Below are positions 21,318 through 49,489 of a stretch of DNA of 51,340 nt, piece after piece. This stretch comes from Candidatus Aenigmatarchaeota archaeon (GTDB taxonomy: Archaea > Aenigmatarchaeota > Aenigmatarchaeia > GW2011-AR5). Under the pieces are notes generated by a model, which was not told where the DNA came from, made no database searches, and worked only from the letters and a program-made list of their open reading frames with translations. Position numbers and translations under genes: made by a program. Every line of letters begins with the position of its first letter. Position 1 is the stretch's first letter. Where the stretch lies: contig JBAZQV010000002.1 in assembly GCA_041645025.1 (NCBI GenBank), positions 1 through 51,340 on the forward strand. The letters are read 5' to 3'.

Positions 21318-24300
21318 ATGGTGCGGAAAAAAGGTTACATTGGGATATCTGTATCTTTGGTCTTATTCGCAGCGCTGTTTTTCATATACAATTCGCAGCC
21401 CGCTGCTGCGTTGATATGCGACGAGGCTGATTGCTTTTATTGCTATGACATCTATCCGATGTGCAAAGATCTTATATCAGTGGGTGCTGGAGGATACAAT
21501 AAATATCAAGTTGGCAGTTGCCCAGGCGGCTGTTACGGGCCATGTGAAAAAGTTGATTGGTGCTGTTCTACTGTCAACCGAGCTAAATTTCTGTATGGGT
21601 GTATGGCATGTGATAGTGGACAGGTTTATACAAATGGCCAATGTGTGACACAGTGTCCCGGCGGCCAGGTTTGGGATGGTAGCAACTGCGTGTGTGGAGC
21701 AGATCAATATTGGGACGGTTCAAACTGTCAGAGTTCTAGATGTGGTGACGGGTATTGCGATCCGACTGAATCAGGCTGGTCGTGCCCGAAATATCCTGAC
21801 GGCTCTGGGGGCGGGGACTGTGCCTGCATTGCAACATCAAGGACGTGCAATTACGCCGGCGTCTTTGAGCACTACTCCAACTGCGGAGGCAAGCAGGTAA
21901 TTGATACTTGCCAATTCGGCTGCTTGGACGGCAAATGCAATCCTGATCCTTGCGCCGGCGTTACATGCAACAGCCCGCCTGCGTCTTACTGCAGCGGCAC
22001 CAGTGTTGTATATTACAATTCTCCGGGAACTTGTTCCGGCGGCAGCTGCGGTTATTTGACAGGCAGTTACGGTTGCCCGACTTCAGGGTGCAGCGGCAGT
22101 TATCGTCAGGCAGGCGGCTGCAGCGGCGGCTCGTGTTATCTGAACAGTGTTGAAAATTGCGGCAGCGATTACTGGGGCTGCTCGGACAGTGAAACACGCG
22201 CGTACCGGTCCCAGGGGTGCAGCGGCGGCAACTGCTATGGCAGCTGGTCGCAGCCGCAGAATTGCAACAACAACAATTATTGCTCAAATTCAGGAGTCAC
22301 CTACCCGACATGCACAAACAGCGACACTGCTGTAACAAGACAGAACAGGGTTTATAATGACTATGGCTGCTCCGGCGGCAACTGTTATCTGGCGTCGCAA
22401 TACGCGTCAGGCAGCTGCCCGCCTGTCGACACAAGTCCGGTGACATGCAGCAACAGCAATGGGTGGGTTAATGTCGGCGCACCTTATTCCGCGTGCAATT
22501 TGGGCAGCGCATGCACTGCGCAAAACCAGGAATACAGGAGCTATGGATGCTCTTCTGGTTCGTGCACTTATTCTGTTACAAATACCCAGACTATTTACTC
22601 TGGTTGCTCTTCGTGCCCGTCGAGCGGCTGCAGCGGAGACACGCGATATTATAGCGGCACATGTTCCGGCGGCTCATGCACATATGGCGGCAGCCAGGAC
22701 TGCAACGTCAATAACTACTGCGGCAATTCCGGAAGCCCTTACTCAGTGTGTAGCAGCAGCAATATCGTAGTGACAAGACAGGACAGGGTTTACAATGATT
22801 ACACATGCTCTGGAGGAAACTGTGCTGTTGCTTCATCCTATGCTTCAGGCAACTGTCCGCCTGTTGACAGCAACCCGCAAACATGCAGCCCTTCGGCACC
22901 GACATGCTCAGGCACTTCAAGATGCACTTATAGTGCTGGCTGCTCCGGCGGCAGTTGCTACAACAGCCCTTCATGTTCACAATGCCCTACGCCAGCTACA
23001 GCTTGTTCAGGCACTTCAGTTCGCACTTACTCTCCAACCTGCTCCGGCGGTTCCTGCAGTTCAACATATTCAGATTCACAATGCCCTACGCCAACACCAG
23101 TTTGCGTGAGCAGTGGCACATTTCGCACTTACTCTCCAACCTGCTCCGGCGGTTCCTGCAGTTCAACATATTCAGACTCTGCATGCCCGGGTGGAACGAC
23201 ATGCAGCGGCGGCAGTTGCATTTCCTGCATCTGTTCTACACCAAGTCCTACTTGCGCTGACTCAGTAACAAAGCGCACCTATTCTCCAACATGCCCAGGA
23301 GGCAGTTGCAGCTCGACATATTCAGATTCAGCGTGTCCTACAGCAGCCACAGACTGCGCAAACTCCGTAACAAGGCGCACCTATACTGCCTACTGCTCCG
23401 GCGGCACCTGCGGCAACACACCTACGAGCACAACCTGCCCTACAGTATCCACAGACTGCGCTGACCCCGTAACAAGGCGCACTTATACTGCTTACTGCTC
23501 TGGAGGAAGTTGCGGCAACACACCAACAAACACAGCATGTCCTAGCCAGGCACCTACATGCGCTGACACAACCACCCGCCGCACCTATTCCCCAACCTGC
23601 TTGGCTGGCAACTGCGGAGTCAGTCCGGTTGATGCAGCATGTTCTGTAACATCGCCAACATGTGCTGACTCCGTAACAAGACGCACTTATACTGCTTACT
23701 GCTCTGGAGGAAGTTGCGGCAACACGCCTACGGACACAGCCTGCCCGACATCAGCTGCGACTTGTGCAAACCCAACCACCCGTCGCACATATGCTCCAAC
23801 CTGCTTGGCCGGCACCTGCGGCAACTCACCAACAGACTCAGCTTGCCCTACACCAGCAACAACCTGCGCAGACGCAAACACAAGACGTGTCTACTCAGCA
23901 ACCTGCTTGGCCGGAAGCTGCGGCTCGACTTATACAGACTCTGCCTGTCAGTATGGCTGCTCCAATGGCGTCTGCGGAACTAACCCGTGCTCGCCAAATC
24001 CTTGCACAAACGTGCCTCAAAACACATGCAGCGGCAGTACGTTGAATGTTTACTCTTCATTATGCACGCCTTCAGGCGGCTCAGCATCATGCTCATATCC
24101 TGCCACGCCTCAATCCTGCCAGTATGGCTGCCTTTCTTTGCCTGGGCCTGACCAGTGTGCTGCTAACAGCCCGCCGACATTTAGCAGCGTTTCTGTGTCA
24201 GGCGCTTTCCAGAGCTATGTGAGGAACGGGCACACGATTGCAGTGAGCTCTGCTGGCACTGATCCGAATGGCGAGCAGGTCAAGCTCAAGTGCGGAAGTG

Positions 24301-27227
24301 CTACGGGCAATTATAATTTATGCACTGGCAACCCTGTTGCATCAAACCCAACATGCTCTTTCACTAATAGCTGGTCTGATTCCAATGACCACACAATTTA
24401 CTGTGCCTTGGAGGACAGCGCAAGCGCGAACTCTGTTGAGCGCACAGCAACGGTCTCAGCTGACAACACAGGTCCTACGCTTACATTATCCAGGAGCCCT
24501 TCAACCGCACAGATAGCTCCGGGCATTTCAGTTAGCCTGACAGCTGACGCGTCTGATGCCAGGAGCGGAATTTCGATAATCAATATTGTTGTTGACGGCT
24601 ACAATGCCAAACTATGCAGCAGCGGCACCTGTTCGTATACCTTTACGCCTTCCTACGGTTCTCATACTTACTATGCCAATGCCTATGACCGGGTCGGAAA
24701 TGTTGTGTGGGCACGTGACAGTTCCGGTGCACTGCCAGGGTCTGGCCCGAACGGGAACGGCACAGCACCGCCGCCTGGAACGAATCCAGGCGAAGGCACG
24801 ACACCGTTACCGCTACCAACACCAGTGCCAGGGGAAGTTGGCAGTCCGTGCTCTAATAATAATGATTGCCGCTCAAACGTGTGCAGCAACAGCCAGTGCA
24901 CAGCCGCACCTGGACCATTACCACCGCCGTCACCTATGCCTGTGAACAACGCGCCTACGGTGCAGCCCATGGACTTTACGCCAAGGGGCAGCTGCAAGCA
25001 GGGCAGCACGATAACGCTGCAATGCACTGCCTCTGACGCAAATCAGGCAGCGAACACACTTTCAACAAAGGCATGGTCAGGCACGTGCACTGTCGGAAAC
25101 TGCTTTGCAACACGCTCATGGACATATCTTAACAATGCGGGCATGACAGCGCCTTCCAGTGGCGGCACATTCACGAGAGACATTACAATAACCGCGCCTG
25201 AAGGAACAGGCATAGCAGCCACATGCCAGGCAACCGACTCCCTGAGCGCGACATCGAACTGGGGTGATGCTTATCCGCTTTGCGTTGTCAACAACTGCCC
25301 GAACCCGCCTACGATAACAATTACCTCCATAACACCAAACCCGTCGCCTGCCGGCACTCTGTCTGTAACGTTTACAGCGAGCCGCTCACTGCAGGGCGAT
25401 CCTGTTGTAAAGATCAAGCCTGGCTCGCAACAGGGCGGCACAAGCCAGAAGGCAGGAAGCATGCGCCAGAAACAGGGGAACAGCTACACATTTGATATTC
25501 CTGTCAGCGCCGGCGACGCAAACGGCATATCAGATGTCTGGGTTGACGCTGGATTCACAGCGCCAAACGGCAACTGCCAGTTCAGCAGCCCGATACAGCA
25601 GATTACTATAGACACCCAGCCACCGACGACAACAGCGCGATGCAACGGGCTGCCTTGTTCTAATATGATTTACACTGCTCCATTGCAGCTGACATTTGGA
25701 TGCAGCGATGCGACGACCAGCTGCGACTCCACATTGTTTAGTGTTGATTCGCGTGCCAGTGATAAATACAGCGGCACCCGCCAGCTTTCTGCTGACGGTC
25801 CTCATACTATTTATTATCTCTCCAACGACAGTCTTGGAAACCGGGAAATTGAAAAAAGCCAGCCGATAAGCGTCTTCAAGCCGCCATGCATAAACCCTGC
25901 AGAAGAGCCTTCCTGCAATCCAAGCGGATTCGTGGGCGTGGAATTATATGCCAAGCTTGACTTCAGCAAGACCAGCGTAATTACAGGCGATGACGCCCAG
26001 GCAAACCTGTACTGCTTCCTGCGCACCAAGGATCTTACAAAACGGTTTATACGGCCTTGCAACCCTGACCCGACCAAGCTGTCAATTATTGTTGACAAGG
26101 GAACAGCGAATCAAAAAGATTACTTTAATCCAGCTAATGGTTACATACCGCCAAGCAGGGCTGACTTTGTAAAGCCAACTTATCAGAAAGACGGTAATTA
26201 CAACCTGCCTACAATAGACGGAACTTACGCAATAACAAGAAGATGGGATTTCAAACTCAACACAAATATCTTCCGCTCGAGCGTGTGCATTAATGTCACT
26301 GATCTTGGCTCGGGCCTTAGTGTTGAAGCCTGCGGCGACTACACTGTCACGGAAACAGAATTTCTCTTCGGCGCATATTTCCCTGACTTGGGCGTGACAG
26401 TGCCGCTTACCATTGACCCGGGGCATGACCAGGTTGCCAACTTTACCAAAACCATGCTCATAAACTTCACAGCAGTGCCGAGCACAAGGACGTTTTCAGG
26501 TGTGTCTGTATGCGAGCCGCCAAACTGCCGGGTTGATTTCAGCTTTGACGCGCCTACATATGACAAGACAACAAAATGGGACGCTTTCCGGAAAGTATTT
26601 GTCGCGTCCAATGTAATTGATATTGCCAGCAATAATTTTGCCTGCGACCAGTACAAAACCATCTATCTTCAGGCGCAACAGGCAGGCGGACCGCCAGCCA
26701 CGACTTCAAAGGAATTCTTCGTCAACTGCCAGACAAAGATAACTGTCACGCCTGTGGAAAAAAGATTCGCCCTGGGCGACCAGCCTGCTGACAATGTGTT
26801 TAGCGTAACAGTGTACAACCCGAAGGAAGGAGCGGCTAATAAAATATTCGACGTTACGTCGTCCACCACAAGCCCTATTTTCAGTTTCCAGTGGATAGAG
26901 TTCAAATGTACTGAAGGCGGATGCATTGTCGACCCTGATAATAACGACAAGGTTCAGCTGGACATGCCTCCGGAGTCCCAGAAATCATTTTCCGTCTCTG
27001 TTTCCACTGTGGCGAGGACAGGCTCGTTCCCGATAACCTTTGTCGCAACTGACCCAGACGGCAACACATATTCGACGCTGGCCACAATCCTTGTGTTTGC
27101 TGAGGGCCTTGACGAGTTCGCTGCGTGGCAGCTCATAATATTAGTGATTATAGCCATTGCGTTTATCGCATACTATAAGATTGATCTTGGGCATAGGAAA
27201 AAAAGAAAAACTAGCAAAAGAAAATAA
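21318..27227 (+). CDS. Giant (1969 aa) cysteine-rich surface protein: N-terminal anchor/signal, CSGGSC-type Cys repeats, Ig-like domains, Pro-rich linkers, C-terminal TM helix plus basic tail
   Basis: Uninterrupted 5.9 kb ORF. N-terminal helix ISVSLVLFAALFFIY. More than 20 C[SP]GG[SNT]C motifs. C-terminal WQLIILVIIAIAFIAYY followed by KIDLGHRKKRKTSKRK. Confidence 0.85.
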   Translation: MVRKKGYIGISVSLVLFAALFFIYNSQPAAALICDEADCFYCYDIYPMCKDLISVGAGGYNKYQVGSCPGGCYGPCEKVDWCCSTVNRAKFLYGCMACDSGQVYTNGQCVTQCPGGQVWDGSNCVCGADQYWDGSNCQSSRCGDGYCDPTESGWSCPKYPDGSGGGDCACIATSRTCNYAGVFEHYSNCGGKQVIDTCQFGCLDGKCNPDPCAGVTCNSPPASYCSGTSVVYYNSPGTCSGGSCGYLTGSYGCPTSGCSGSYRQAGGCSGGSCYLNSVENCGSDYWGCSDSETRAYRSQGCSGGNCYGSWSQPQNCNNNNYCSNSGVTYPTCTNSDTAVTRQNRVYNDYGCSGGNCYLASQYASGSCPPVDTSPVTCSNSNGWVNVGAPYSACNLGSACTAQNQEYRSYGCSSGSCTYSVTNTQTIYSGCSSCPSSGCSGDTRYYSGTCSGGSCTYGGSQDCNVNNYCGNSGSPYSVCSSSNIVVTRQDRVYNDYTCSGGNCAVASSYASGNCPPVDSNPQTCSPSAPTCSGTSRCTYSAGCSGGSCYNSPSCSQCPTPATACSGTSVRTYSPTCSGGSCSSTYSDSQCPTPTPVCVSSGTFRTYSPTCSGGSCSSTYSDSACPGGTTCSGGSCISCICSTPSPTCADSVTKRTYSPTCPGGSCSSTYSDSACPTAATDCANSVTRRTYTAYCSGGTCGNTPTSTTCPTVSTDCADPVTRRTYTAYCSGGSCGNTPTNTACPSQAPTCADTTTRRTYSPTCLAGNCGVSPVDAACSVTSPTCADSVTRRTYTAYCSGGSCGNTPTDTACPTSAATCANPTTRRTYAPTCLAGTCGNSPTDSACPTPATTCADANTRRVYSATCLAGSCGSTYTDSACQYGCSNGVCGTNPCSPNPCTNVPQNTCSGSTLNVYSSLCTPSGGSASCSYPATPQSCQYGCLSLPGPDQCAANSPPTFSSVSVSGAFQSYVRNGHTIAVSSAGTDPNGEQVKLKCGSATGNYNLCTGNPVASNPTCSFTNSWSDSNDHTIYCALEDSASANSVERTATVSADNTGPTLTLSRSPSTAQIAPGISVSLTADASDARSGISIINIVVDGYNAKLCSSGTCSYTFTPSYGSHTYYANAYDRVGNVVWARDSSGALPGSGPNGNGTAPPPGTNPGEGTTPLPLPTPVPGEVGSPCSNNNDCRSNVCSNSQCTAAPGPLPPPSPMPVNNAPTVQPMDFTPRGSCKQGSTITLQCTASDANQAANTLSTKAWSGTCTVGNCFATRSWTYLNNAGMTAPSSGGTFTRDITITAPEGTGIAATCQATDSLSATSNWGDAYPLCVVNNCPNPPTITITSITPNPSPAGTLSVTFTASRSLQGDPVVKIKPGSQQGGTSQKAGSMRQKQGNSYTFDIPVSAGDANGISDVWVDAGFTAPNGNCQFSSPIQQITIDTQPPTTTARCNGLPCSNMIYTAPLQLTFGCSDATTSCDSTLFSVDSRASDKYSGTRQLSADGPHTIYYLSNDSLGNREIEKSQPISVFKPPCINPAEEPSCNPSGFVGVELYAKLDFSKTSVITGDDAQANLYCFLRTKDLTKRFIRPCNPDPTKLSIIVDKGTANQKDYFNPANGYIPPSRADFVKPTYQKDGNYNLPTIDGTYAITRRWDFKLNTNIFRSSVCINVTDLGSGLSVEACGDYTVTETEFLFGAYFPDLGVTVPLTIDPGHDQVANFTKTMLINFTAVPSTRTFSGVSVCEPPNCRVDFSFDAPTYDKTTKWDAFRKVFVASNVIDIASNNFACDQYKTIYLQAQQAGGPPATTSKEFFVNCQTKITVTPVEKRFALGDQPADNVFSVTVYNPKEGAANKIFDVTSSTTSPIFSFQWIEFKCTEGGCIVDPDNNDKVQLDMPPESQKSFSVSVSTVARTGSFPITFVATDPDGNTYSTLATILVFAEGLDEFAAWQLIILVIIAIAFIAYYKIDLGHRKKRKTSKRK
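22984..23970 (+). repeat. Tandem 99-102 nt (33-34 aa) cysteine-repeat array inside giant gene 2
   Basis: Unit is CP[TS]xxxTC[AS][DN]xxT[RK]RTY[ST][AP][YT]C[SLP][GA]G[STN]CGxxPT[DNS]xA. Seven units have an exact 102-nt period (Arg/Lys codons at 23271, 23373, 23475, 23577, 23679, 23781, 23883). They are preceded by three related units, two of which share a ~50-nt identical block. Confidence 0.8.
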
Positions 27228-38644: not shown

Positions 38645-38773
38645 AAATAATTATAGTAAAAAAGAGATTAAAATACAAACTAAGCCCAAATAAATACTTG
38701 CTTTCCAATTATGGTCGTTTTTTGTCCCTAATTATCTTTTTATTCGGGAAAATCCAATAAAATCCTAGTGCAT

Positions 38774-41700
38774 ATGAAAGCGCAAACAGCTTTAGGTATA
38801 TTTATCGCATTTGGCGTAGTATTATTAATAGGATTGTCTTTTTTTACAACCAAGGCTTATGCAGAGCCATGCAATTGCTTTGATAACACTGACTGCGCTG
38901 TTGGTGAAACGTGCGATCCTGATAACACCATGTGCACGGTAACTGATGGCAATGTAGGCATGTGTGTTGCTGGCGGTGGATTTACTTGTACCCCTGCCTG
39001 CACTTCTCCACAAGTATGCCAGAGCGGTACATGCGTTACTCCTCCTACTACACCACCCGGCACTGATACAGGCGTAGCAATAGGAGTTGGCGACGTGACA
39101 TCGTGTTCAGGCACAACAGGCTGCGCTGGCGCAACGTGTCGCTGGAGCAAATGCGCGACAACTGCTAACCCCACAAAGATAGAGTTCACATTTACCATAC
39201 CTAACACGTGCAATGGAAATTCAATATGGTCAGGTGGAAGATGGGTTCCTGCTAATCCGTGCAGCACAAATGCTGTTTCATTTCCTGCCAGCGTGAAAGC
39301 TGCTTATGCCAACAACTGCCTGCACAGCATTCTTCTCACAGAAGTTCAGTCCGATGATTATGGAAAAGTGTGCGCTGGTCCAGGGTGCAGCGCCAGCAGC
39401 GCTCCAGCCGCCGGCATTATTCCAGGTCCGGGTGGCGGCGGCGGTGGTGGCGGAGGCAATAGTTTTGTTTCTGGCACACCCATACTGCTTGTTGATGGCA
39501 GTTCCAAGCCAATTGAAGAAATAAAGATTGGAGACAAAGTCCGTTCATTTGACCCGGAGACCGGCACTTTCTCTATTGGTAATGTCACGTCTATTCTTAC
39601 ACGAGATGTTCAGGAAAGTTATATTCTTGACTTTGATGACGGTTCAAGTGTAGGAGTTACTGGGACACACCCGTTTTATGTCAAGACAGCCGCTTCCGGA
39701 GTTCCTACTATACACAAATATTTTGTGCAGGTCAAGGACCTGATGGCTGGCGACCGGGTCTACAAGGCATATGACAACCGGGCTGTTTCTGTCAAGATTA
39801 CTGTTATTCGGCAGATATCAAAGCCAGTTACTGTTTATAATTTCAACGTTGAGCCGTTTCATACATATATTGCCAACAACATGGTGGTCCATAATATCAA
39901 ATCAGAGAGAGGTCCCTTCGCAAATGTCGTGGCAAAGCCGACGTTTAGCGTGACAGGATTTGCGACAGCCAGCGGCGGTGTTATCTATACAGCAGCAAGC
40001 AATGCAGTCTGGGCACCAAACGTTGACGCGACTAACGCGTTTGACAAAACAGACCCAAAAGTAAGCCTTTATGTTGTTGATACGATAGCCGCAAACTACG
40101 GCGGAAATTCAAGAACCATAGGCGCGACGTTTAAGGTAATAATTCTCAATCCATCTCCAACACAGAAATGCGTTATGGATACGGCAACGGGAAAACCAAA
40201 AATAGTACCTTTGTGTGCTGGCACGACAGCAGAATGTACTCAGACACCTACGGAAATACCAACACTTACTGCCCCGCGGTGCATTGATTTGACAAGTCAG
40301 AACGGATGGCAGGCTACAGGTCCTGCTGTCTCAAAATGTGTTGACAGCAATCAGTACAAGGCTATGGTTACACCACAGGCGTACAAGGTCTCTACGTGCA
40401 CAAAATATGTACCAGACCTGACATTTTCAAAATATGGTAATTATACAACTAATGCAACCGCTCCTGGTACTCCGCCCCGCGGTGGTTCTGCTACGAGAGA
40501 TAACTGGACAACAAGAACGTCCTGTGGCACCCTTGGCTGCAATCCTGCTACTGGATTGTGCAAGACAGGCGGTGGAGGTGGATGCCCTGATGGGCAGACA
40601 AAGTGCAGCGACGGTGTTTGCAGGACTGACTGTGGCGGCACTTGCATAAAGCCCCCTTTGCTTAATTCAATAAATGCAACTCCGCGGCGAGTGGCGCCTA
40701 CAGGTATTGTAACAATGTCAAGTATTGGTTCCAGTTCTGAATCCATAACAGATGCAGGCAGCACTACTCCAAGGCGAATGAAAGTGAAGCTGGAGTGCGG
40801 CACAGCTGAAGGTAATATTCAAACTACTAGCCCTCCACCAGGCGGCGACGATACCGCGTGCAGGACCAGAACTAACCCGGCATCAATACTTGCTTCTGTA
40901 CGGGCTGCGCGTGCTGCGTACGGCGCAATGGTTAGTGCTGAAGAAGCAGCGGTTCTCTTAAACAAGGCAGCATGGGACAACAAAGACGCTGGTTGGGGAT
41001 TGCTAAGCAAGACAGGTGGAAATAGTTGTCCGCATTCGTCTGGTTCTATTTCATGTGATATTCTTTTCCATAAACCTTCTGGCTTGATATATGATGTTCT
41101 TGGCAGCGGGCCTGGGCCAGAAGGTCCTGGTCCAAGCAATCCGCAATGGGGATGTACTGGCAGAGCTGAAACAAGTAAGTGGGTTGCACCTACCACGCCT
41201 ACAGGCGGAGGCACTGCTGTTTGTGCTGGCAAAACTCCAGGCTGGTATGATCCTACAATGTGGGGTGGCTGCCCACTTTCAGAATGCCGACAGAATAGTG
41301 CAACATGCTCTAGCTGTGGAGAAGCTCTTGCATATTGCGATGGCACCAACTGGAAGACAGATTGGGACCCTTTTGTTACTGAAAGTCAAAAGGCCACAGC
41401 AACATCAGGTCATACGTGCCCTTGCGCTACCGGTCTTACAGGCGGAGTTACATCGAAGCCTACGTTCAGCGTGACAGGCTTTGCAACCGGCGGTGCGTGC
41501 GAAACTTGCGCTGAAAAAGGGCAGACAGATAAATACCAAAGTGATGTAAAAAATGCCGCAAACAAATATCTTGCTTCTCATCCGGAAATTGGAGATTTGC
41601 CAAGTTATGGTGCTGCTGATGGGGGGAGTGATGAAGGTGAAGCTGCAGTAGCCCAACTTAGAGACGGAGTAATTGCTATTTTAATTGGTCAAGGCTTTCA

Positions 41701-44700
41701 TGCCGAAACAATAGGAAGCTATCCTCAAATAGTAGCTGTTTGGAAAGATGGTGATCCCGATAAAACAGGGTATAGAGTAACTGCAGGTGGAGGAAAAATA
41801 CATGACGCAATTCAAGCAGGTTATTGTGGCGGACATGAGACTTTTGGTGGCACTGATATTATCCCTAGTGGTTGTACATCTGCTCCTACTGCTGCAAGAG
41901 ATGGTACGAGTGGCTCATGCCAGACGGGCAGCTTCACAGCAAACCTTTGCAGCGGACAACTCGCTGACAACAACCCAACTTGTACATTGACGCTCCCGCC
42001 AGAATGGAAAAGGGGCGGCTTCTTCCAGAATCTTTACTGCCGCCTTAAGGATGAGTCCGGCATGTATTCAAACTCAAGCAGGACAAGCATAATAGTTGAC
42101 AACAACCCGCCGACGTCAAGAATAACCGAGCCGGTGGCGAACAGCGTCCAGACAGCCAACTTCCAGATTAAGGTCACGGACGCAGATGATTCTGGCCTGG
42201 ACAAATGTTATTATACAACATCTGGTAACACAGCTACGCCCATTGCTTTGCCGCGGGGAAACATTGCGCTTTCAAATCCTTACAGGGTATGGAGACCGCT
42301 TGACGTGGCTTATAGCACTAAGAGTGATGTGGCGCTGGCTGTGTGGAGCACTGAACATCAAGGTAAGGTCATCGGCCAGTTTATAACGGATGCCGGGGCG
42401 CTGCGAGGCGGTAATGTTATTCTTGGAAGTAGTAGTGATTTCGTTGGCTCAATAAAAATCACCTATGACGAGGATGATGATTTGTTCTTAGTTGCATGGG
42501 GTGCTGCTGCCGGCAACAATATGGGACCAACATATGGCAGCTTGGTAAAAGCAGATGGAACTTTTGTCAAGCAGAATTTTGTTATTATGAACAACTGTGA
42601 TTTAGGCATTCATGCTTCCTCCAGCGGAAATATAGCCTATAGCTCAGGCGCGAAAAAATTCTTTGTATCATGTACGCGTGGCGTCATAACCAGGGGCAGC
42701 ATTATAGGTAATTCAGTTACGCCAACCGGCACTGTTGGGAATGAAGTGGTGGTGACAGGTGATGGAATGTTTGGCTCTTCAGCTGCGGCAGGCGGGAGCA
42801 GTGTTCTTGCTACATGGTTTGATCAGAACGGCATTGCCTACGGCAGACTATACAATCCTAATGGCGCAGCTTTGACAGGTCCAATTAGAATTTCAACCGG
42901 AACGCTGGGAGGTTATGTTTCGCTTGTCGCGTTCTATGATACTACACGCAATGAGTATACCGCTTTCTACTGGGGGAGTGTTGGAAGAAAACTTTACAAA
43001 CGCACCATTGGACCAAGCGGTACTCTGGGAACCGAGTCTACTGTGTTCACCAACAACAATGTCGGGGTCAGTGACATTGCCTATAATCCTTTGACCGGCA
43101 GCTATTTTGTTGCTGACCAGCACCAGGATGATAACGGAAATGGTTATATTAAGATAAGCAGCGGTGGAGCTGCGTCAGGGTCAGTTAGAGTTTCTGAAGA
43201 CATGACGCTGCCACATTACACACCAGCTATAATAGCTACAGGGAATGACGTGCCGCTTACAATAATGAATCAGGCTGGTGATGCTTATGCGCAGTTCGGT
43301 GGGTTGGGAGGCGCAATTAGTGGCGGCAGACTCAGAATATGCAACAGCCAGACAACAATAACCGTTGGGCCTGGTAACGATTGTCCTGACCAGGGCTCTT
43401 GTACTGTAAGCGCTTTTGCGACCGACACTGTTGGCAACATTGGTGCACCGGATTCACGCAGCTTTACGATAAATTTGATTCTTACAAATATTACTTCCCC
43501 ACTAGACGGCAGCAACCAGACCGGTAACTTTTCCGTGAATGTTCAGGACAGGGACTTTGCTTCTACGACAAACAGCACAATTACATGCACCTATGATATC
43601 TACAGTGTTGGTTCAACATCTACAAAGATAGTTGACAATGCAGCGCGCAGGTGCAACAGCAACTTCACTGTGAGCATTGGACCTGATGGCGACTGCAATC
43701 TCATGGGACAGGGTTCATGCAAAGTTGTTGCAAAGGTCAACAAAACTATGAACGGCACCAGAATCGAAGATACCAGTACAAGATTCTATAACATTGACTG
43801 GGTTACACCTTTCTCAGAAATCGTCAGTGCACCTAGCAACTGGGTAACTTCGGACTTCACTATTTCTGTAAGTGATAACGCTCAGGGCGTTGCCAGCAGA
43901 ATATCAAAATGCCAGTACAAGGTGGTCAGCAATGCAACCCAAACCGTGTCATGGACTGACAGGGCATGTGGCATTGGCGCACCTGCCAGCGTAATGATAA
44001 CGGTCGGGCCAGGAAAGAACTGCAGGCACGAGGGCGGCGACGCGTGCACAATATTTGTCAGGCCTATAGGCATGTCAGGATTACCGGGCGTAGAAGATAA
44101 TGTTTCTGTTCCAATAATTTTTAATGTCACAGATACAAACGGCTTTTCGGTCACAACAACCACACAAACTGAAAGGGGCCTGAACTTCAGCGGCACTACA
44201 CGACAGGAGTTGAGATTATATACATTTTATGTCTGCAACAAAAACTCAAATGTTAACAGTTGCATAGCAGCATACAACAGCAACAACAGGGGCGCGAACA
44301 AGCCGAACTTCTGCGGCTCGCTTCTTGGTAAATGCGAGCTGAGGTGCAGCGACCAGACAGTTTTGTACTACTTTGCCGCGAGAGGCACACCGGTTGGCCA
44401 ATCCGCGACAGTTACTGTTGTCAGCACTATCACGAGCGCCGCATGCCCGACATTCAATATTGGCCAGATAAACGAATGGTATCAGATATTTACTGACCTC
44501 GATGTGCAAATTGGGACTGAGATAGGAATTGTTGATTCTTCCATAAGCCAGAACGGCGAGACGGCTATTGCCAACAACGAGACTCTTGTGATTCTAAGGG
44601 AAGCGCTGCTCATTACAAAAGACCATTTGAAAAATATGACGATGGAAATGCAGGACCTTACGGTTACAAAAGCGCGACAGCTGATTCAACGCTCGCTTGA

Positions 44701-47700
44701 AAAAAGAGACGACATTGACAGACTTCTAAGAGGAATAAGGCCTCCGACACGCGTATTGATGACTGTTGATATGCCGACTGTTGTGAGATTTAACCGCAGC
44801 ATGACCCTGACTGCTACAATAAACAAGGACGGCCCCACGGACGCGTACGGAACTGTCTACTGTACAATAACAAAGCCGGGTAATTTAGTCCAGCAGAACA
44901 GATCGTCATGCCTTGTGCTGGGTGGACCTGGTCATCACTCCACTGCTTATAGCGTTCCATTTATGCCTGACAGGCTTGGCACCTGGACTTACAGCTGCAA
45001 ACTGGGACGTTCGGTAAGACCTGACTGCTCCTTTGAGGTGAACCAGACGCCTGTTAGCGGCACGTTTGCTGTGTTGCCTGCTGCAAGCACTTTCATAGCT
45101 TCCTTATCAACTCCAGATAATGCGGTAAGAGGTAGTGTGGTGACTACAAACACTGTTGTGACAAATCCTGACAGCTCAGACAGGTTTGTTAATGTAACAT
45201 GTAATTTCAGATATATTTCCAACGGGCAGCTGATTACAAGAAGGAATTCATCAAGCTGCATTAGTGCTGCTACTGGTGATACAACAGTTCCCATTAAGAT
45301 GTACGCAAGCACTCTTGGCGAATGGAATGTAACCGGTTGCTCTGTGCGCTCATCTTCAACATCAAATTGTGCCAGCTCTGCTCTTGACAATACTTCTCTT
45401 GCTACTGCGAGTTACATGGTAATGCTGCCTGATTCGGTTTTCATAGAGTCTGTTGGCGTGCCTCAGGCACCTGTCCTGAATAACTCATTGCTAAGCATAC
45501 CGGTTATTATTAACAACCCCACACAAGACGTGGCTTATGTCACTTTGAACTGTGGAATAATAAAACCGGTTGGCTCAGTGACCGTCACGGACCAAAATGG
45601 CGTTGATTCTGGCAGGACCAGTTCGTTCACGCTTGATACCACGACTGACCGTGTTGGCAGGTGGAACATAAGTTCCTGCAATGTTTCTGTCTCTCCTGAC
45701 CCAAGTTTCTCAGGCAGCTCTGTTGTTTATACACGCAATAATGTGGGAACATTCAATGTTATCGCGCGCAGCAATCTTACAATAACAGCAGTGAATTCAC
45801 CAACTACGGTTCAAAATAATACGCTTACAAGCTTAAGCGTTTCTATTACAAACCCTTCCAATGCACGCTATGGCCGCGTTTCCTGTACTGTAAGAGATCC
45901 GGTTAATAGGGTTCATGTCAACAGTTCTGCATGTTTGATTGTGAACAGCAATGCGCAAAGAGTTTTTGCCATCAACTTCTTTATGAACAGGACTGGCGAA
46001 TGGCACATCACTCAATGCTCTGTTTACGGTTCAGCCAGCGCCGACTGTTCCTCGTATTCGCTACATGACAGAAAAGATTTTATTGATAACTCGTTTAATT
46101 CAACGGTTTCCTGCACTGCTGGCTTGTACCACGCTACGAACCCGGCAACAAGCGTGTGCCAGGAGTTTGGCAACAACTGTAACATACCTACCGGCTGGAT
46201 AAATATAACAGCAGGTTCGTGCCCGGGCGGCATGGGTGTTGTGTATGTATCATCAGTTTCAGTGCCGACCAGTGATGTGATAAATAATTCCAACGTGAAC
46301 ATAGACACACTGGTTACAAACCCTATAAATGATGACAGATTCGGCCAGGTCAGTTGCTTTGTCAAAAGCCCGAGCGGCGCAACGCAGCTGCTAACTTCAT
46401 CGTGCGAAGGCATAGCCGCCGCAAACGCACGAACATACAGGACGATTTTAACTGTTAATAAAGTAGGAGTATGGAACGTAACGACCTGCAGCGTAAACGC
46501 AAGCACGAGCTGCGCTTCGGCAACGTTACAACACATCCTTAACGCGAGCAAAACATTCAATGTAATACGTGGTGCAAACCTTTCCTTTGTGTCGTTCTCG
46601 CTGCCGCCGGACACGCTGGTAAATAATACTGCGACCACTGCTATAAACATAAGGAACCCTTCAGATGCAGCGAGATACGCACGCGTCTTCTGTAGCTTCA
46701 GGAACTCCCAGAACCAGATGACATCAAACACAACATCGTGCCTGCAGGTAGCAGGAACATCCACACCGACATTTGGAGTAAACATATTTGCGAACGTTGC
46801 CGGAACATGGAACGTTGATTCTTGCACATTGCGCGGTTCTCTTGACTCAAGCTGCTCGGAACTTCACGATTCTGAATCAGGTATAGGTGCGTTCAACATA
46901 ACTACGGTATCACCGCCGCCGGCTCTTGCAGAACTTTTCATAAGCAACCTAAGTGCCAGTTCGGCAGCTTTCAATGACAGCCGCATAAGCGTGCTGGTAT
47001 ACGGAAGAAACAATAACCTGGCCAACAGCAGTTATGCTATTGTTGGTTGTGAGTTCCTCAACCCGCTTGGTGGCTTGACCAGACAAGCGTCTTCATGCAC
47101 GCAGGTAACTGCAAACAGCACTGTGCGATTTGGAGTTTCGCAACTGCTTAACATACCTGGAACATGGACTGTTGCCAACTGCTTCATAAACGCGTCAAAC
47201 ACTAACAACTGTGCGCCTTCAATACTTAACAATGTTTCCGCAGAAACAAGAACGATAACAGTTTCGCTTCCTCCTAATCTTTACATCACAGGCGTCACCG
47301 CGCCGAGCGCTGATGTTGTAAATAACACGAACGTAAATATAGATGTCTTTGTCAACAACCCTCTCAATGACGACAAGTACGGACTCGTCAACTGCATAAT
47401 ACAAGATCCCAATGGAAATAATTATACCAGGGCCGCAGCCTGCTCCTCGGTGCCAAGACAGACCAGCAACAAGAAATACAATGTTTCTGTGGTTGCCAAC
47501 ATTGTCGGTTCATGGAACGTGAGAAATTGTTCTGTTAGTTCCTCCACCAGCTCGAGCTGCGCAAGTTCCTCTCCTGCCGGGGAACTTATAAACGGTGATA
47601 CATTCAATGTGATACGTGGCTACAACCTCACCTTATCATCCTTATCAGTACCACAGTCTGTTTATGTAAACCAGCCTTTGCGCGTGGCATACACGCTGAG

Positions 47701-49084
47701 AAATCCTTCAACCTCTGACAGATTCGGACGTGTCACATGTACCATGACAAAGGGCGGTCAGAGCGTTGTCAACACTTCATCGTGCATGACCATAGCTCCT
47801 GAATCGTTCATAGACGGCAGCGTTTTGTTTACTCCTGCTTCGACAGGAACCTGGACCGTTACCTGCGTGGCGCAGCGTTCTTTCGATGCAAGCTGCACTT
47901 CTGTGGAGGCACATGACACAGACTCACAAAGCTTTAACGTGACTTACCCGCCTGACCTGTTCATACAATCGATAGATGTGCCGTCTCTTGCGCTAAAGGA
48001 CCAGGAAGTCTTTTCCACACTCAAGATAAGAAATACGGCGCTCACGAACATGTACGGCTTTGCTCAGTGCACATTTAAAAACAGGCTTAACGAAACGACT
48101 TACAATTCATCTGAATGCCTTAACATGACGGCCGACACAACAATAGTTAGTCTCGGCGTTACCCCGGCGCTTCGGGGCAACTTGACTGTTTACAACTGCT
48201 ATATCAATGCCACGTCACTGAGCAACTGCAGCTCATCAAGGGTACATAACATTTCAACCACGGAAAAATCATTTAATGTATTCGCGCCGGTTCTCTCGTT
48301 TGTCGGCAACGTAAATCTCGCGTATTCGAATCTCATGGTAGGTGATATCGCTGATATAGTTGTGAATGTGAAGAACACAGGAGAACGCGCCTACCTTGCA
48401 TTTGTGAACTGCACCCTCATCAATCCTCTCGGAGTCTCTTACATGCTGACGACAACACCGCAGACGCTGCAAATGGATGAAACAATGGATTTCCATCCGC
48501 AGCGCACAGTTGATATATCAGGTACATGGAAGGTCGGTACTTGCAGCATTTACAGCATAAGCAGCCCACCGAAGCTCGAGGCCCAGAAAACTGTTAATCA
48601 GATTTTTGACGTGCTATATGCGGCTTCGACAGATGAGTGCAATAGTAATGTGCCATGCCAAACGGGCTTCACCTGCGAGAACGGCGCGTGTGTAGCTATT
48701 CCTCAGCCGCTATGCAGTGCAAGCAATTGTCCTGGCACTAAGGACGGGTGCTACTGCTCCAGTGATAGATGTGTTTCATGCGGACAGGGTTATACATGCT
48801 CGCAGAGCAGATGCGTGCCAGAGACGCCGGTTATCAATACCTGCAGGTCAACCAATGACTGCGTATCCGGCAATGTTTGTGTGAATGGCGTGTGCCAGCA
48901 GAAACCTGCCGAATGCTTCACTAATAGTGATTGCGGTAGTAACTATGAATGCAAATCAGGCAGTTGTGTTGTGTCTGTTCAGAAGCCGTTGTTGGATGAG
49001 AAAATAATATATTTCCTGATAATACTTCTTGCGGTGATAATGGTCCCTATAATTTTATTCATTTATATTAAACGTTCTATATAA
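38774..49084 (+). CDS. Giant (~3436 aa) surface protein: signal/anchor, Cys-rich head, Hint domain, mixed beta-rich regions, ~11 tandem 4-Cys Ig-like modules, EGF-like Cys stalk, C-terminal TM anchor
   Basis: Uninterrupted 10.3 kb ORF (ATG at 38774; the track starts at GTG 38768). N-terminal GIFIAFGVVLLIGLSFF. C-terminal IIYFLIILLAVIMVPIILFIYI-KRSI. Confidence 0.85.
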   Translation: MKAQTALGIFIAFGVVLLIGLSFFTTKAYAEPCNCFDNTDCAVGETCDPDNTMCTVTDGNVGMCVAGGGFTCTPACTSPQVCQSGTCVTPPTTPPGTDTGVAIGVGDVTSCSGTTGCAGATCRWSKCATTANPTKIEFTFTIPNTCNGNSIWSGGRWVPANPCSTNAVSFPASVKAAYANNCLHSILLTEVQSDDYGKVCAGPGCSASSAPAAGIIPGPGGGGGGGGGNSFVSGTPILLVDGSSKPIEEIKIGDKVRSFDPETGTFSIGNVTSILTRDVQESYILDFDDGSSVGVTGTHPFYVKTAASGVPTIHKYFVQVKDLMAGDRVYKAYDNRAVSVKITVIRQISKPVTVYNFNVEPFHTYIANNMVVHNIKSERGPFANVVAKPTFSVTGFATASGGVIYTAASNAVWAPNVDATNAFDKTDPKVSLYVVDTIAANYGGNSRTIGATFKVIILNPSPTQKCVMDTATGKPKIVPLCAGTTAECTQTPTEIPTLTAPRCIDLTSQNGWQATGPAVSKCVDSNQYKAMVTPQAYKVSTCTKYVPDLTFSKYGNYTTNATAPGTPPRGGSATRDNWTTRTSCGTLGCNPATGLCKTGGGGGCPDGQTKCSDGVCRTDCGGTCIKPPLLNSINATPRRVAPTGIVTMSSIGSSSESITDAGSTTPRRMKVKLECGTAEGNIQTTSPPPGGDDTACRTRTNPASILASVRAARAAYGAMVSAEEAAVLLNKAAWDNKDAGWGLLSKTGGNSCPHSSGSISCDILFHKPSGLIYDVLGSGPGPEGPGPSNPQWGCTGRAETSKWVAPTTPTGGGTAVCAGKTPGWYDPTMWGGCPLSECRQNSATCSSCGEALAYCDGTNWKTDWDPFVTESQKATATSGHTCPCATGLTGGVTSKPTFSVTGFATGGACETCAEKGQTDKYQSDVKNAANKYLASHPEIGDLPSYGAADGGSDEGEAAVAQLRDGVIAILIGQGFHAETIGSYPQIVAVWKDGDPDKTGYRVTAGGGKIHDAIQAGYCGGHETFGGTDIIPSGCTSAPTAARDGTSGSCQTGSFTANLCSGQLADNNPTCTLTLPPEWKRGGFFQNLYCRLKDESGMYSNSSRTSIIVDNNPPTSRITEPVANSVQTANFQIKVTDADDSGLDKCYYTTSGNTATPIALPRGNIALSNPYRVWRPLDVAYSTKSDVALAVWSTEHQGKVIGQFITDAGALRGGNVILGSSSDFVGSIKITYDEDDDLFLVAWGAAAGNNMGPTYGSLVKADGTFVKQNFVIMNNCDLGIHASSSGNIAYSSGAKKFFVSCTRGVITRGSIIGNSVTPTGTVGNEVVVTGDGMFGSSAAAGGSSVLATWFDQNGIAYGRLYNPNGAALTGPIRISTGTLGGYVSLVAFYDTTRNEYTAFYWGSVGRKLYKRTIGPSGTLGTESTVFTNNNVGVSDIAYNPLTGSYFVADQHQDDNGNGYIKISSGGAASGSVRVSEDMTLPHYTPAIIATGNDVPLTIMNQAGDAYAQFGGLGGAISGGRLRICNSQTTITVGPGNDCPDQGSCTVSAFATDTVGNIGAPDSRSFTINLILTNITSPLDGSNQTGNFSVNVQDRDFASTTNSTITCTYDIYSVGSTSTKIVDNAARRCNSNFTVSIGPDGDCNLMGQGSCKVVAKVNKTMNGTRIEDTSTRFYNIDWVTPFSEIVSAPSNWVTSDFTISVSDNAQGVASRISKCQYKVVSNATQTVSWTDRACGIGAPASVMITVGPGKNCRHEGGDACTIFVRPIGMSGLPGVEDNVSVPIIFNVTDTNGFSVTTTTQTERGLNFSGTTRQELRLYTFYVCNKNSNVNSCIAAYNSNNRGANKPNFCGSLLGKCELRCSDQTVLYYFAARGTPVGQSATVTVVSTITSAACPTFNIGQINEWYQIFTDLDVQIGTEIGIVDSSISQNGETAIANNETLVILREALLITKDHLKNMTMEMQDLTVTKARQLIQRSLEKRDDIDRLLRGIRPPTRVLMTVDMPTVVRFNRSMTLTATINKDGPTDAYGTVYCTITKPGNLVQQNRSSCLVLGGPGHHSTAYSVPFMPDRLGTWTYSCKLGRSVRPDCSFEVNQTPVSGTFAVLPAASTFIASLSTPDNAVRGSVVTTNTVVTNPDSSDRFVNVTCNFRYISNGQLITRRNSSSCISAATGDTTVPIKMYASTLGEWNVTGCSVRSSSTSNCASSALDNTSLATASYMVMLPDSVFIESVGVPQAPVLNNSLLSIPVIINNPTQDVAYVTLNCGIIKPVGSVTVTDQNGVDSGRTSSFTLDTTTDRVGRWNISSCNVSVSPDPSFSGSSVVYTRNNVGTFNVIARSNLTITAVNSPTTVQNNTLTSLSVSITNPSNARYGRVSCTVRDPVNRVHVNSSACLIVNSNAQRVFAINFFMNRTGEWHITQCSVYGSASADCSSYSLHDRKDFIDNSFNSTVSCTAGLYHATNPATSVCQEFGNNCNIPTGWINITAGSCPGGMGVVYVSSVSVPTSDVINNSNVNIDTLVTNPINDDRFGQVSCFVKSPSGATQLLTSSCEGIAAANARTYRTILTVNKVGVWNVTTCSVNASTSCASATLQHILNASKTFNVIRGANLSFVSFSLPPDTLVNNTATTAINIRNPSDAARYARVFCSFRNSQNQMTSNTTSCLQVAGTSTPTFGVNIFANVAGTWNVDSCTLRGSLDSSCSELHDSESGIGAFNITTVSPPPALAELFISNLSASSAAFNDSRISVLVYGRNNNLANSSYAIVGCEFLNPLGGLTRQASSCTQVTANSTVRFGVSQLLNIPGTWTVANCFINASNTNNCAPSILNNVSAETRTITVSLPPNLYITGVTAPSADVVNNTNVNIDVFVNNPLNDDKYGLVNCIIQDPNGNNYTRAAACSSVPRQTSNKKYNVSVVANIVGSWNVRNCSVSSSTSSSCASSSPAGELINGDTFNVIRGYNLTLSSLSVPQSVYVNQPLRVAYTLRNPSTSDRFGRVTCTMTKGGQSVVNTSSCMTIAPESFIDGSVLFTPASTGTWTVTCVAQRSFDASCTSVEAHDTDSQSFNVTYPPDLFIQSIDVPSLALKDQEVFSTLKIRNTALTNMYGFAQCTFKNRLNETTYNSSECLNMTADTTIVSLGVTPALRGNLTVYNCYINATSLSNCSSSRVHNISTTEKSFNVFAPVLSFVGNVNLAYSNLMVGDIADIVVNVKNTGERAYLAFVNCTLINPLGVSYMLTTTPQTLQMDETMDFHPQRTVDISGTWKVGTCSIYSISSPPKLEAQKTVNQIFDVLYAASTDECNSNVPCQTGFTCENGACVAIPQPLCSASNCPGTKDGCYCSSDRCVSCGQGYTCSQSRCVPETPVINTCRSTNDCVSGNVCVNGVCQQKPAECFTNSDCGSNYECKSGSCVVSVQKPLLDEKIIYFLIILLAVIMVPIILFIYIKRSI
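39461..39895 (+). other. Hint (mini-intein / BIL-like) domain, 145 aa, with no homing endonuclease
   Basis: Block A: SFVSGTPILLVDGSSKPIEEIKIGDKV. Block B: GVTGTHPFYV (TxxH). Blocks F/G: VYNFNVEPFHTYIANNMVVHN. Ser1 follows a Gly9-Asn run. The terminal HN is followed by Ile, not Cys/Ser/Thr. Confidence 0.8.
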
Positions 49085-49108: not shown

Positions 49109-49489
49109 ATGAAAGGAATTTCCCTGCCGATGAACATGATAATCGTTGTGACAATAGCAGCCCTTGTGCTCGTTGCTTTCGGGGCGTTTTTTATCACGAC
49201 AACCGGCGGCGGAGTTTCAGATGCCGAAGCCCAGAGAATTTTTGCGGGCGGGTGCGTACAGTATTGCAAGCCTGGCCTCTATGAAACTTTCACAGCTGCC
49301 TATACAGCTTCGCAGAATGATCCAAATTTCATCAAGGCATGCACGAAGCTTGGCTACGGCGACGGGCAGAACGCAAACAGGTGCCTTGAAAAGTGTCCTG
49401 GCTGCAATGTTATTGTTGACCAGAACGACAGGGACGCAAACATCGGGATGGATCGTATTTTTGACACGCTGTCTCGAACACCATCATGA
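49109..49489 (+). CDS. Small secreted or pilin-like protein with a class III-like signal peptide (126 aa)
   Basis: MKGISLPMNMIIVVTIAALVLVAFGAFFI (short charged N terminus, Gly, long hydrophobic helix). Four or five Cys in the mature part. Lies directly downstream of the giant gene. Confidence 0.4.
   Translation: MKGISLPMNMIIVVTIAALVLVAFGAFFITTTGGGVSDAEAQRIFAGGCVQYCKPGLYETFTAAYTASQNDPNFIKACTKLGYGDGQNANRCLEKCPGCNVIVDQNDRDANIGMDRIFDTLSRTPS

Follow-up and report, generated by a model that had tools for sequence, protein, structure and literature searches.

Most descriptions of BIL-type Hint domains concern secreted proteins and toxins of bacteria. The type A members, i.e. those that end in His-Asn and lack a nucleophile at position +1, form a (thio)ester at their N-terminal end and cleave through cyclisation of Asn (PMC4031507; PMC7664689); they can also splice via amine attack on the (thio)ester, with cleavage products dominating (PMC4031507). 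The class includes the Clostridium thermocellum BIL (2LWY), and the work of Amitai (2003) and Dassa (2004) on these domains is summarised in PMC4031507 and PMC7765530. In polymorphic toxins, a PT-HINT domain directly precedes the C-terminal toxin domain (Zhang et al. 2012, PMC3482391), and Tetrahymena BIL2 ligates its N-extein to the ε-amine of a lysine (PMC8616854). Here we describe a domain of this kind in a giant surface protein of a Candidatus Aenigmatarchaeota archaeon, encoded within a 51,340-nt stretch of contig JBAZQV010000002.1 (hereafter, the window).

A mini Hint domain in the linker of a giant surface protein

The host ORF comprises 3438 codons counted from a GTG, and this count is used for residue numbers below. 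The ATG at 38774 is the likely true start, since the orthologues likewise begin at MKAQTAL; from there the product has the 3436 aa given in the original prediction. The features of the locus are as follows.

38768..49084, plus strand: giant surface-protein ORF, 3438 aa counted from GTG
38774..38863, plus strand: N-terminal hydrophobic signal MKAQTALGIFIAFGVVLLIGLSFFTTKAYA, read from sequence
38864..39430, plus strand: Cys-rich head of ~190 aa, conserved in orthologues (dN/dS about 0.3)
39431..39460, plus strand: Gly9-Asn linker, with Asn231 at position -1, where the ester would form at the carbonyl
39461..39895, plus strand: Hint domain of the A-type BIL / PT-HINT class, 145 aa, Ser232 to Asn376
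39461..39499, plus strand: block A SFVSGTPILLVDG, with Ser232 as the nucleophile at residue 1
39659..39676, plus strand: block B TGTHPF, with Thr298 and His301 of the TxxH motif
39833..39895, plus strand: blocks F and G VYNFNVEPFHTYIANNMVVHN, ending in His375-Asn376
39896..39901, plus strand: C-flank, Ile377 (+1, not a nucleophile) and Lys378 (+2)
39935..39967, plus strand: KPTFSVTGFAT motif, copy 1, 13 residues past the Hint domain
41456..41488, plus strand: KPTFSVTGFAT motif, copy 2
49004..49069, plus strand: C-terminal transmembrane helix IIYFLIILLAVIMVPIILFIYI, followed by KRSI, read from sequence
49109..49489, plus strand: small pilin-like neighbour gene with the class III signal MKG↓ISLPMNMIIVV (context)

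Translation of 39461-39895 on the plus strand gives SFVSGTPILLVDG...TGTHPF...VYNFNVEPFHTYIANNMVVHN, while the opposite strand is interrupted by stops. The original prediction had seen here a 145-aa segment with all splicing blocks, and this was borne out both by the translation and by a search with Hint and intein profiles, in which three Pfam families scored above their cut-offs: PT-HINT (PF07591) as the best-scoring family (E = 2.7e-15; 57.3 bits, cut-off 27.7), Intein_splicing (38.9 bits, cut-off 35.8), and Hint (35.0 bits, cut-off 29.7). An endonuclease insert, predicted to be missing, is indeed absent, as 145 aa leave no room for one. The translation also confirmed the proposed flanks of nine Gly plus Asn and then Ile, i.e. 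P-G9-N before and I-K-S-E-R-G after the domain. In a phmmer search of the PDB, the best match was 2LWY, a 'bacterial intein-like domain' (E = 8.4e-14, 55 bits, about 36% identity), with an alignment that spans the domain from end to end and in which HN falls on HN; in 2LWY and in 6Y75 alike, the position matched by Ser232 is C1A. The remaining chains of BIL type or with a Hint domain reached 32-36 bits, and canonical inteins at most 19 bits. When an AlphaFold model of the domain (pLDDT 78.8, pTM 0.74) was submitted to Foldseek, BIL2 (6Y75/6TMM) and 2LWY came first (E about 1e-10 to 1e-11, TM 0.7-0.86), and the best 50 of the 70 PDB matches at E<=1e-3 were without exception inteins, BILs or Hedgehog domains. 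Chance does not come near to explaining such a match, and the segment is a genuine Hint domain of the A-type BIL / PT-HINT class and of mini size; Pfam, PDB sequence and Foldseek ranking agree that it is BIL-type rather than a canonical intein, as had been proposed. It extends a known class, of which it is a fairly ordinary member, and reveals no new one.

Apart from the Hint domain, a Pfam scan of the whole protein returned nothing above cut-off, and no toxin domain was detected in it. The head had neither a Pfam nor a PDB sequence match, and AlphaFold modelling of residues 1-430 with five orthologues was too poor for use (pLDDT 42.5). The N-terminal hydrophobic stretch could be a Sec signal cleaved at AYA↓E, or else a signal of the pilin type (class III), processed at MKA↓QTAL... 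and kept as an anchor, and the description of an 'anchor-bearing head' in the original prediction is therefore uncertain. The signal matches a FlaFind-like motif, MKAQTAL is invariant among orthologues, and an A24 prepilin peptidase is encoded in the same genome. We infer both the export route and the N-terminal processing of the surface protein. Its C-terminus consists of a Cys-knot region plus the transmembrane anchor, whose helix is conserved in full-length orthologues, and copy 1 of the KPTFSVTGFAT motif is kept in all orthologues, Hint-less ones included. No paralogues of the head or body were found in the genome, which carries archaeal class I LysRS and Pus10.

Conservation and loss of the Hint domain

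Ser1, the T..H of block B and the C-terminal His-Asn are kept in four orthologues whose flanks are merely 39-54% identical. Block B reads TGTHPF in three orthologues and TDRHPF in one. At positions +1/+2 the orthologues have IK, IK, LK and LK, so the predicted lack of a +1 nucleophile holds for Ile377 and throughout the set (I/I/L/L), and the orthologue C-flanks (IKPQPA, LKEPGN, LKPGAA) have no Ser, Thr or Cys nearby. Between the distant orthologues, the Hint domain is 66-70% identical and thereby exceeds head and body in conservation; no other part of the N-terminal 560 aa is as well conserved between clades. Given the retained catalytic residues and a Hint dN/dS of 0.15-0.20 among orthologues, the domain is probably active.

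Four further orthologues (P0007, L006, L008 and L012) carry a Gly/Pro linker at the exact Hint position; among them is L008, the closest relative of the head (84.5% identity). Judging from these alignments, the protein can do without the module, which at least one close relative has cleanly lost. Direct repeats flanking the Hint domain, as a cause of the clean deletion in L008, were not found. The GC content of the domain is the lowest of the gene and its GC3 is ordinary, the latter giving no compositional sign of recent import. Between the window protein and L007, pS was 0.56 in the Hint domain versus 0.71-0.82 in the flanks, i.e. the domain is relatively closer between the clades, and in the Hint tree P0006 grouped with the window clade (SH-aLRT 89). 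These patterns are only suggestive of lateral exchange among orthologues and, as the unrooted four-taxon Hint topology agrees with the host tree, we do not claim a transfer.

To place the domain in its surrounding subfamily, we used 311 full domains from the 150 nearest database proteins. Residue 1 is Cys in 301 of these 311 relatives, compared with Ser in the archaeal window domain; a C-terminal HN is present in 293, and 115 have Gly at position -1, where poly-Gly runs are common. Cys, Ser or Thr occupies +1 in 35 domains and Lys in 188. Taking both positions together, Lys is found at +1 or +2 in 223 of 303 domains (74%), against a background frequency of 5%. Simple hydrolysis leaves this strongly conserved lysine unexplained.

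Predicted processing and alternative readings

Combining the conserved residues with published BIL chemistry, we propose, as a reasonably probable course of events, that an active, endonuclease-free A-type BIL/PT-HINT domain excises itself after export, with the ester mostly hydrolysed and a minor part re-joined through an amine. The domain, placed in the flexible poly-Gly linker between the ~190-aa Cys-rich head and the ~3060-aa membrane-anchored body, would fold once the protein is exported. Aided by Thr298 and His301 of block B, Ser232 would convert the peptide bond that links it to Asn231 into an ester through an N-to-O acyl shift, and Asn376, aided by His375, would cyclise to a succinimide, breaking the Asn376-Ile377 bond. 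Because Ile377 would be unable to form a branched intermediate, the two steps would be uncoupled and the 16-kDa Hint domain would excise itself. Most of the ester at Asn231 would then be hydrolysed, separating the head from the body, while in a minor fraction the α-amine of Ile377 or the ε-amine of the conserved Lys378 would resolve it and re-join the two. An oxyester is less reactive than a thioester, and rates and outcomes of Cys1 BILs may for this reason not transfer to a Ser1 domain.

According to the original prediction, canonical splicing needs Cys, Ser or Thr at +1, and a domain without it performs autocleavage or ester transfer rather than splicing. Cleavage does dominate in type A BILs; the ban on splicing is too strict, since members of the class without a +1 nucleophile can splice via amine attack (PMC4031507). 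The head may be cleaved off about 230 residues from the N terminus, as the original prediction held to be probable, albeit this idea is weakened by the four Hint-less orthologues—the nearest included—that join head and body by the same Gly-rich linker. L008 shows that head and body are functional when covalently continuous, which argues against an obligatory release of the head.

The same orthologues bear on whether splicing without a nucleophile might be the main outcome. Here, an amine of the C-flank would attack the ester—either the α-NH2 of Ile377, or the ε-NH2 of Lys378 to give an isopeptide branch—so that the head is joined to the body and the inserted Hint domain leaves no mark on the phenotype. 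Once mature, the protein would look like the Hint-less forms with their Gly linker, which would explain the clean loss in L008, and the lysine at +1/+2 in 74% of the subfamily and in all four orthologues fits as well, as do the ability of type A BILs to splice without a +1 nucleophile (PMC4031507) and the Lys isopeptide bond made by BIL2, the top fold match (PMC8616854). Yet published BIL-A assays yield mainly cleavage, the Ser1 oxyester is a poor substrate for aminolysis and the β-branched Ile at +1 is a hindered nucleophile, and we consider this outcome fairly unlikely. By analogy to the ciliate BIL2, the conserved lysine that adjoins the C-terminal junction, at +1 in most relatives and at +2 in this domain, might be a built-in acceptor of the Hint-activated head for extracellular, ATP-independent isopeptide ligation, a decidedly unlikely reading in our estimate. 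In its cis form, head and body could be re-joined via a branch; in its trans form, ligation could be onto a lysine of the archaeon's envelope or of the host surface, which, if true, would make the giant adhesin a covalent 'harpoon'. In a further alternative, raised already in the original prediction, an outside nucleophile (a lysine or hydroxyl on a component of the host cell or of the archaeon's own envelope, or a lipid) would resolve the Asn231 ester, and the head would become covalently linked to that partner, as in Hedgehog or BUBL proteins. Such an attachment has a precedent in BIL2, which conjugates its N-extein to other proteins (PMC8616854), and would suit the host-attached life of DPANN archaea and the distal head of the giant surface protein. 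It is nevertheless wholly speculative and highly improbable, given that the domain has no adduct region of the sterol-recognition type and ends in HN like self-excising BILs, and that Hint-less orthologues exist.

A domain that kept the Hint fold and lost its processing, i.e. an inactive relic or mere spacer, would be compatible with Ser in place of Cys at residue 1 and with the dispensability of the module. However, all catalytic residues were kept while the orthologue flanks diverged to 39-54% identity, and both the dN/dS of 0.15-0.20 and the standing of the domain as the best conserved of the N-terminal 560 aa between clades speak against decay, making this explanation very unlikely. That the domain might instead be a canonical class 1 intein with misread boundaries and a true Cys, Ser or Thr at +1 could be argued from the Intein_splicing score just above cut-off and from Ser379 at +3 in the surface protein, but the end-to-end alignment to 2LWY places HN at the very end, the insertion lies in a linker rather than at a conserved site, and the real inteins of this genome look different. 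The orthologue flanks, with no Ser, Thr or Cys nearby, effectively refute this reading, whose probability we take to be close to nil.

The domain is a case of a BIL-type module under purifying selection in an archaeon that is ultra-small and probably host-attached, within one of its giant surface proteins. The natural 'with' and 'without' Hint alleles among close relatives provide a clean comparison for the effect of the module on surface proteins, the options being release of a tip domain, a silent self-removing insert, or ligation. In addition, the combination of Ser1 and Lys(+2) would lend itself well to testing whether ligation without a nucleophile, or directed by lysine, can take place outside the cell.

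Comparison with known systems

The same genome harbours three canonical mini-inteins (Cys1; Cys or Ser at +1), located in a radical-SAM Cys motif and in two P-loops. They share fold and motifs with the archaeal BIL-type Hint domain, at 23-25% identity, and differ from it in having Cys1 and a +1 Cys or Ser and in residing in catalytic motifs of conserved enzymes rather than in a linker. A canonical class 1 intein was rejected for the domain on account of Ile/Leu at +1 and of its insertion in a linker instead of a conserved site. A Hedgehog/Hog-type Hint was likewise rejected, since the domain ends in HN at 145 aa with the linker directly after and has no adduct (sterol) recognition region.

With the PT-HINT domains of polymorphic toxins, the archaeal domain shares its best Pfam family (PF07591), a secreted or surface protein as host, and a presumed releasing, autoproteolytic role. 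In the toxins, the domain directly precedes the C-terminal toxin; here, a small N-terminal head comes before it (residues 232-376 of 3438), and the protein ends in a transmembrane anchor. The polymorphic-toxin architecture was rejected on these grounds.

The closest non-orthologous sequences (36-46% identity) are Hint domains located close to the C-terminal end of tape-measure proteins of phage tails (P0038, P0043, P0044 and others), which likewise have poly-Gly ahead of residue 1 and a C-flank of the form HN-[VLIR]-K, and differ by Cys1 and by their viral structural-protein context. They grouped with the Aenigmatarchaeota Hint domains in a quick tree, albeit weakly (SH-aLRT 84). These relatives come from metagenomes of uncultured sources alone, records of cultured phages giving weak matches of at most 33% identity, and a literature search found no description of the function of tape-measure Hint domains.

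In the structural search with the model, BIL2 of the Tetrahymena thermophila BUBL protein (6Y75/6TMM) ranked first (E about 4e-11, TM 0.7-0.8). Like the archaeal domain, it is a Hint domain without a +1 nucleophile; its acceptor is a lysine, and the subfamily of the archaeal domain has a conserved Lys at +1/+2. In contrast, BIL2 is eukaryotic and cytosolic and is flanked by ubiquitin-like domains, whereas the archaeal protein has no ubiquitin-like exteins, and the two are 25-28% identical.

With the A-type BILs, the domain shares a mini Hint fold with blocks A/B/F/G, an N-terminal nucleophile, a His-Asn end, and the lack of both an endonuclease and a +1 nucleophile. The setting is shared as well, namely a variable stretch of a secreted protein that is not itself conserved (here, the poly-Gly linker of a protein with signal and transmembrane anchor). 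The differences are Ser instead of Cys as residue 1, a membrane-anchored protein of 3.4 kaa in which the domain lies ~230 residues after the N-terminus, and a host that is an archaeon (DPANN) and not a bacterium, although a bacterial host is a matter of name only and not a biochemical criterion. By its sequence, the archaeal Hint domain is an A-type BIL, for which autocatalysis is predicted.

Identity and setting of the Hint domain

Translation of 39461-39895 on the forward strand reproduced the 145-aa segment quoted in the original prediction. Its identification as a Hint domain was right, since three Pfam families scored above cut-off in the giant protein: the pre-toxin family PT-HINT (57.3 bits, E = 2.7e-15, cut-off 27.7), Intein_splicing (38.9 bits, cut-off 35.8) and Hint (35.0 bits, cut-off 29.7). 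Across the whole protein, only the Hint domain exceeded a Pfam cut-off, and translation of the opposite strand of the segment gave stops and no open frame. The top PDB sequence match was 2LWY, a bacterial intein-like (BIL) domain from Clostridium thermocellum (E = 8.4e-14), which aligned end to end, pairing Ser232 with the mutated Cys1, THPFYVK with DHPFYVK and HN with HN; other BIL-type or Hint-bearing chains scored 32-36 bits and canonical inteins at most 19 bits. When the domain was modelled with AlphaFold (pLDDT 78.8, pTM 0.74), the fold matches were led by Tetrahymena BIL2 (6Y75/6TMM) and 2LWY, followed by inteins and Hedgehog.

Features of the locus:
38768-49084, + strand: giant surface-protein ORF, a single ORF of 3438 aa counted from GTG
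39461-39895, + strand: Hint domain, 145 aa, Ser232 to Asn376 (3438-aa numbering)
39935-39967, + strand: motif KPTFSVTGFAT, copy 1, aa 390-400 of the giant protein
41456-41488, + strand: motif KPTFSVTGFAT, copy 2, aa 897-907 of the giant protein
49109-49489, + strand: next gene, small pilin-like protein (MKG↓ISLPMNMIIVV)

The orthologues start at the ATG two codons after the GTG (MKAQTAL), which yields the originally stated length of 3436 aa. From its N-terminus, the protein comprises a hydrophobic signal, a ~190-aa Cys-rich head and a long body built from repeat modules that contain Cys, EGF-like Cys knots and, last, a C-terminal transmembrane helix. The Hint domain is flanked by Pro-Gly9-Asn231 on its N-side and by Ile377-Lys378 on its C-side. 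The 11-aa motif KPTFSVTGFAT occurs twice; orthologues with the Hint have [KS]PTF.[VI]TG at both sites, and two Hint-less ones (P0007 and L008) share the first copy. Because the stretches downstream of the two copies lack mutual similarity, the motif resembles a conserved boundary or processing signal. Two further giant ORFs in the window, 129-7625 (2498 aa) and 21318-27227 (1969 aa), carry N-terminal hydrophobic signals; neither contains a Hint according to a PT-HINT scan of the whole genome, and neither showed paralogy to the head or to the region after the Hint.

The N-terminus is compatible with a Sec signal (AYA↓E) and also with a class III pilin-type signal, MKA↓QTAL followed by 20 hydrophobic residues (38774-38863). 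MKAQTAL is invariant in the orthologues, and the genome encodes an A24 prepilin peptidase (contig C32:59282-59620). The signal may thus be of either kind, and the 'anchor-bearing head' proposed originally hinges on which: with a class III signal, Hint cleavage would part a pilin-like head from the C-terminally anchored body, and with a Sec signal it would set the head free.

The wider Hint subfamily

A HMMER scan of 1.84 billion representatives returned 12,613 matches (1,576 at E ≤ 1e-10); the following counts refer to the 311 complete domains from its best 150 proteins. At residue 1, 301/311 have Cys and 8/311 have Ser, and 293 of the 311 end in HN. The first residue after the domain (+1) is Lys in 188/311 and Cys, Ser or Thr in only 35/311, which argues that the whole subfamily lacks a +1 nucleophile and fits A-type BILs. 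Lys occupies +1 or +2 in 223/303, versus a background of 5%.

Outside the orthologues, the closest sequences (36-46% identity) come from phage tail tape-measure proteins, which carry one Hint towards their C-terminus; it is preceded by a poly-Gly run and flanked by HN-[VLIR]-K, like HN-I-K in the window. A quick tree places these phage Hints with the archaeal ones, though weakly supported (84). In metagenomic examples (P0038, P0043, P0044, P0049, P0062, P0083), the BIL-type Hint lies ~70-100 residues from the C-terminus, where its self-processing could form part of tape-measure maturation. Numerous further relatives (metagenomic proteins P0011-P0036) have 2-7 PT-HINT domains in tandem, joined through HN-K-G(1-4)-C and often followed by Tim44-like domains (PF04280).

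Orthologues with and without the Hint domain

The Hint occupies one and the same position in four loci: the window, L004/P0004, L005/P0005 (archaeon GW2011_AR5) and L007/P0006. They all share Ser1, the block B T..H (TGTHPF, in one TDRHPF), a block F/G string with terminal HN and Lys at +2; their +1 residues, I, I, L and L, are non-nucleophilic. Another four orthologues (P0007, L006, L012, L008) lack the Hint at exactly this linker. One of these, L008, has the head nearest to the window's (84.5% identity); its linker reads ...IIPGPPT-G16-REPVAAVVAKPTFSVTGFAT, that of the window ...IIPGP-G9-N[Hint]IKSERGPFANVVAKPTFSVTGFAT. Since L008 is nested within the Hint-bearing clade of window and L004 in a tree of Hint-stripped proteins (support 100/100), and the four orthologue Hints are monophyletic (SH-aLRT 99), the simplest history would be that the Hint was gained once and then cleanly lost, in L008 at least. 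No direct repeats flanking the Hint that could explain deletion were found, and GC3 gave no sign of recent import. L006 is a 3-kb contig (CAZWTE010000090.1) labelled 'uncultured Gammaproteobacteria bacterium' and is probably mis-binned, given the unmistakable orthologue of the Aenigmatarchaeota surface protein that it encodes.

Putative self-excision and its products

No branched intermediate can arise in BILs; those of type A make an N-terminal (thio)ester, cut the C-terminal junction by Asn cyclisation and give mostly cleavage products, although ester attack by the liberated amine can join the flanks (PMC4031507; PMC7664689). The original premise that splicing does not occur without a +1 nucleophile is thus too strict (PMC4031507). 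In Tetrahymena BIL2, a lysine ε-amine resolves the thioester into an isopeptide bond, to other proteins too (PMC8616854). In the window Hint, every residue that the N-terminal acyl shift requires (Ser1, block B Thr/His) is present and conserved, as is the His-Asn pair that Asn cyclisation requires; the +1 nucleophile is absent.

We propose that the Hint excises itself once exported, and that the Asn231 ester would then be hydrolysed, releasing the head, or alternatively aminolysed, re-joining it via the Ile377 α-NH2 or the Lys378 ε-NH2. Self-excision would probably leave mainly cleaved products, because assays on type A BILs show such products and an oxyester of Ser transfers its acyl group poorly to amines. 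We consider ligation of head to body unlikely, although the conserved Lys and the nearest relative, which lacks the Hint, genuinely support it; attachment of the head in trans, as BIL2 achieves, seems very improbable. That the Hint is inactive is also quite improbable: with a dN/dS of 0.15-0.20 among Hint-bearing orthologues and a between-clade identity of 66-70%, above that of the head (39%) and of the 186 residues after the Hint (52-54%), a decaying relic would not be expected to look like this.

Comparison with known systems

Membership among canonical inteins or Hedgehog proteins fails on defining features. In polymorphic toxins, the Hint is placed just upstream of a C-terminal toxin (PMC3482391), an architecture that the window Hint does not share. 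The same assembly (~1 Mb, 88% complete, encoding archaeal class I LysRS and Pus10) holds three canonical mini-inteins:
contig C25:13754-14170, - strand: Cys1, +1 Cys or Ser
contig C69:3129-3560, - strand: Cys1, +1 Cys or Ser
contig C60:4883-5308, - strand: Cys1, +1 Cys or Ser
One interrupts a radical-SAM CxxxCxxC motif (Cys1 ... Ser-Asn, +1 Cys), and two closely related ones interrupt the P-loops of two ATPases (Cys1 ... His-Asn, +1 Ser). The window Hint is only 23-25% identical to them and unlike them in every diagnostic respect (Ser1, +1 Ile, linker site). It stands out by its Ser1/Lys(+2) chemistry and by the natural pair of Hint-plus and Hint-minus alleles. Every sequence-testable defining feature of A-type BILs is present, the sole mismatch being the word 'bacterial' in the name of the class.
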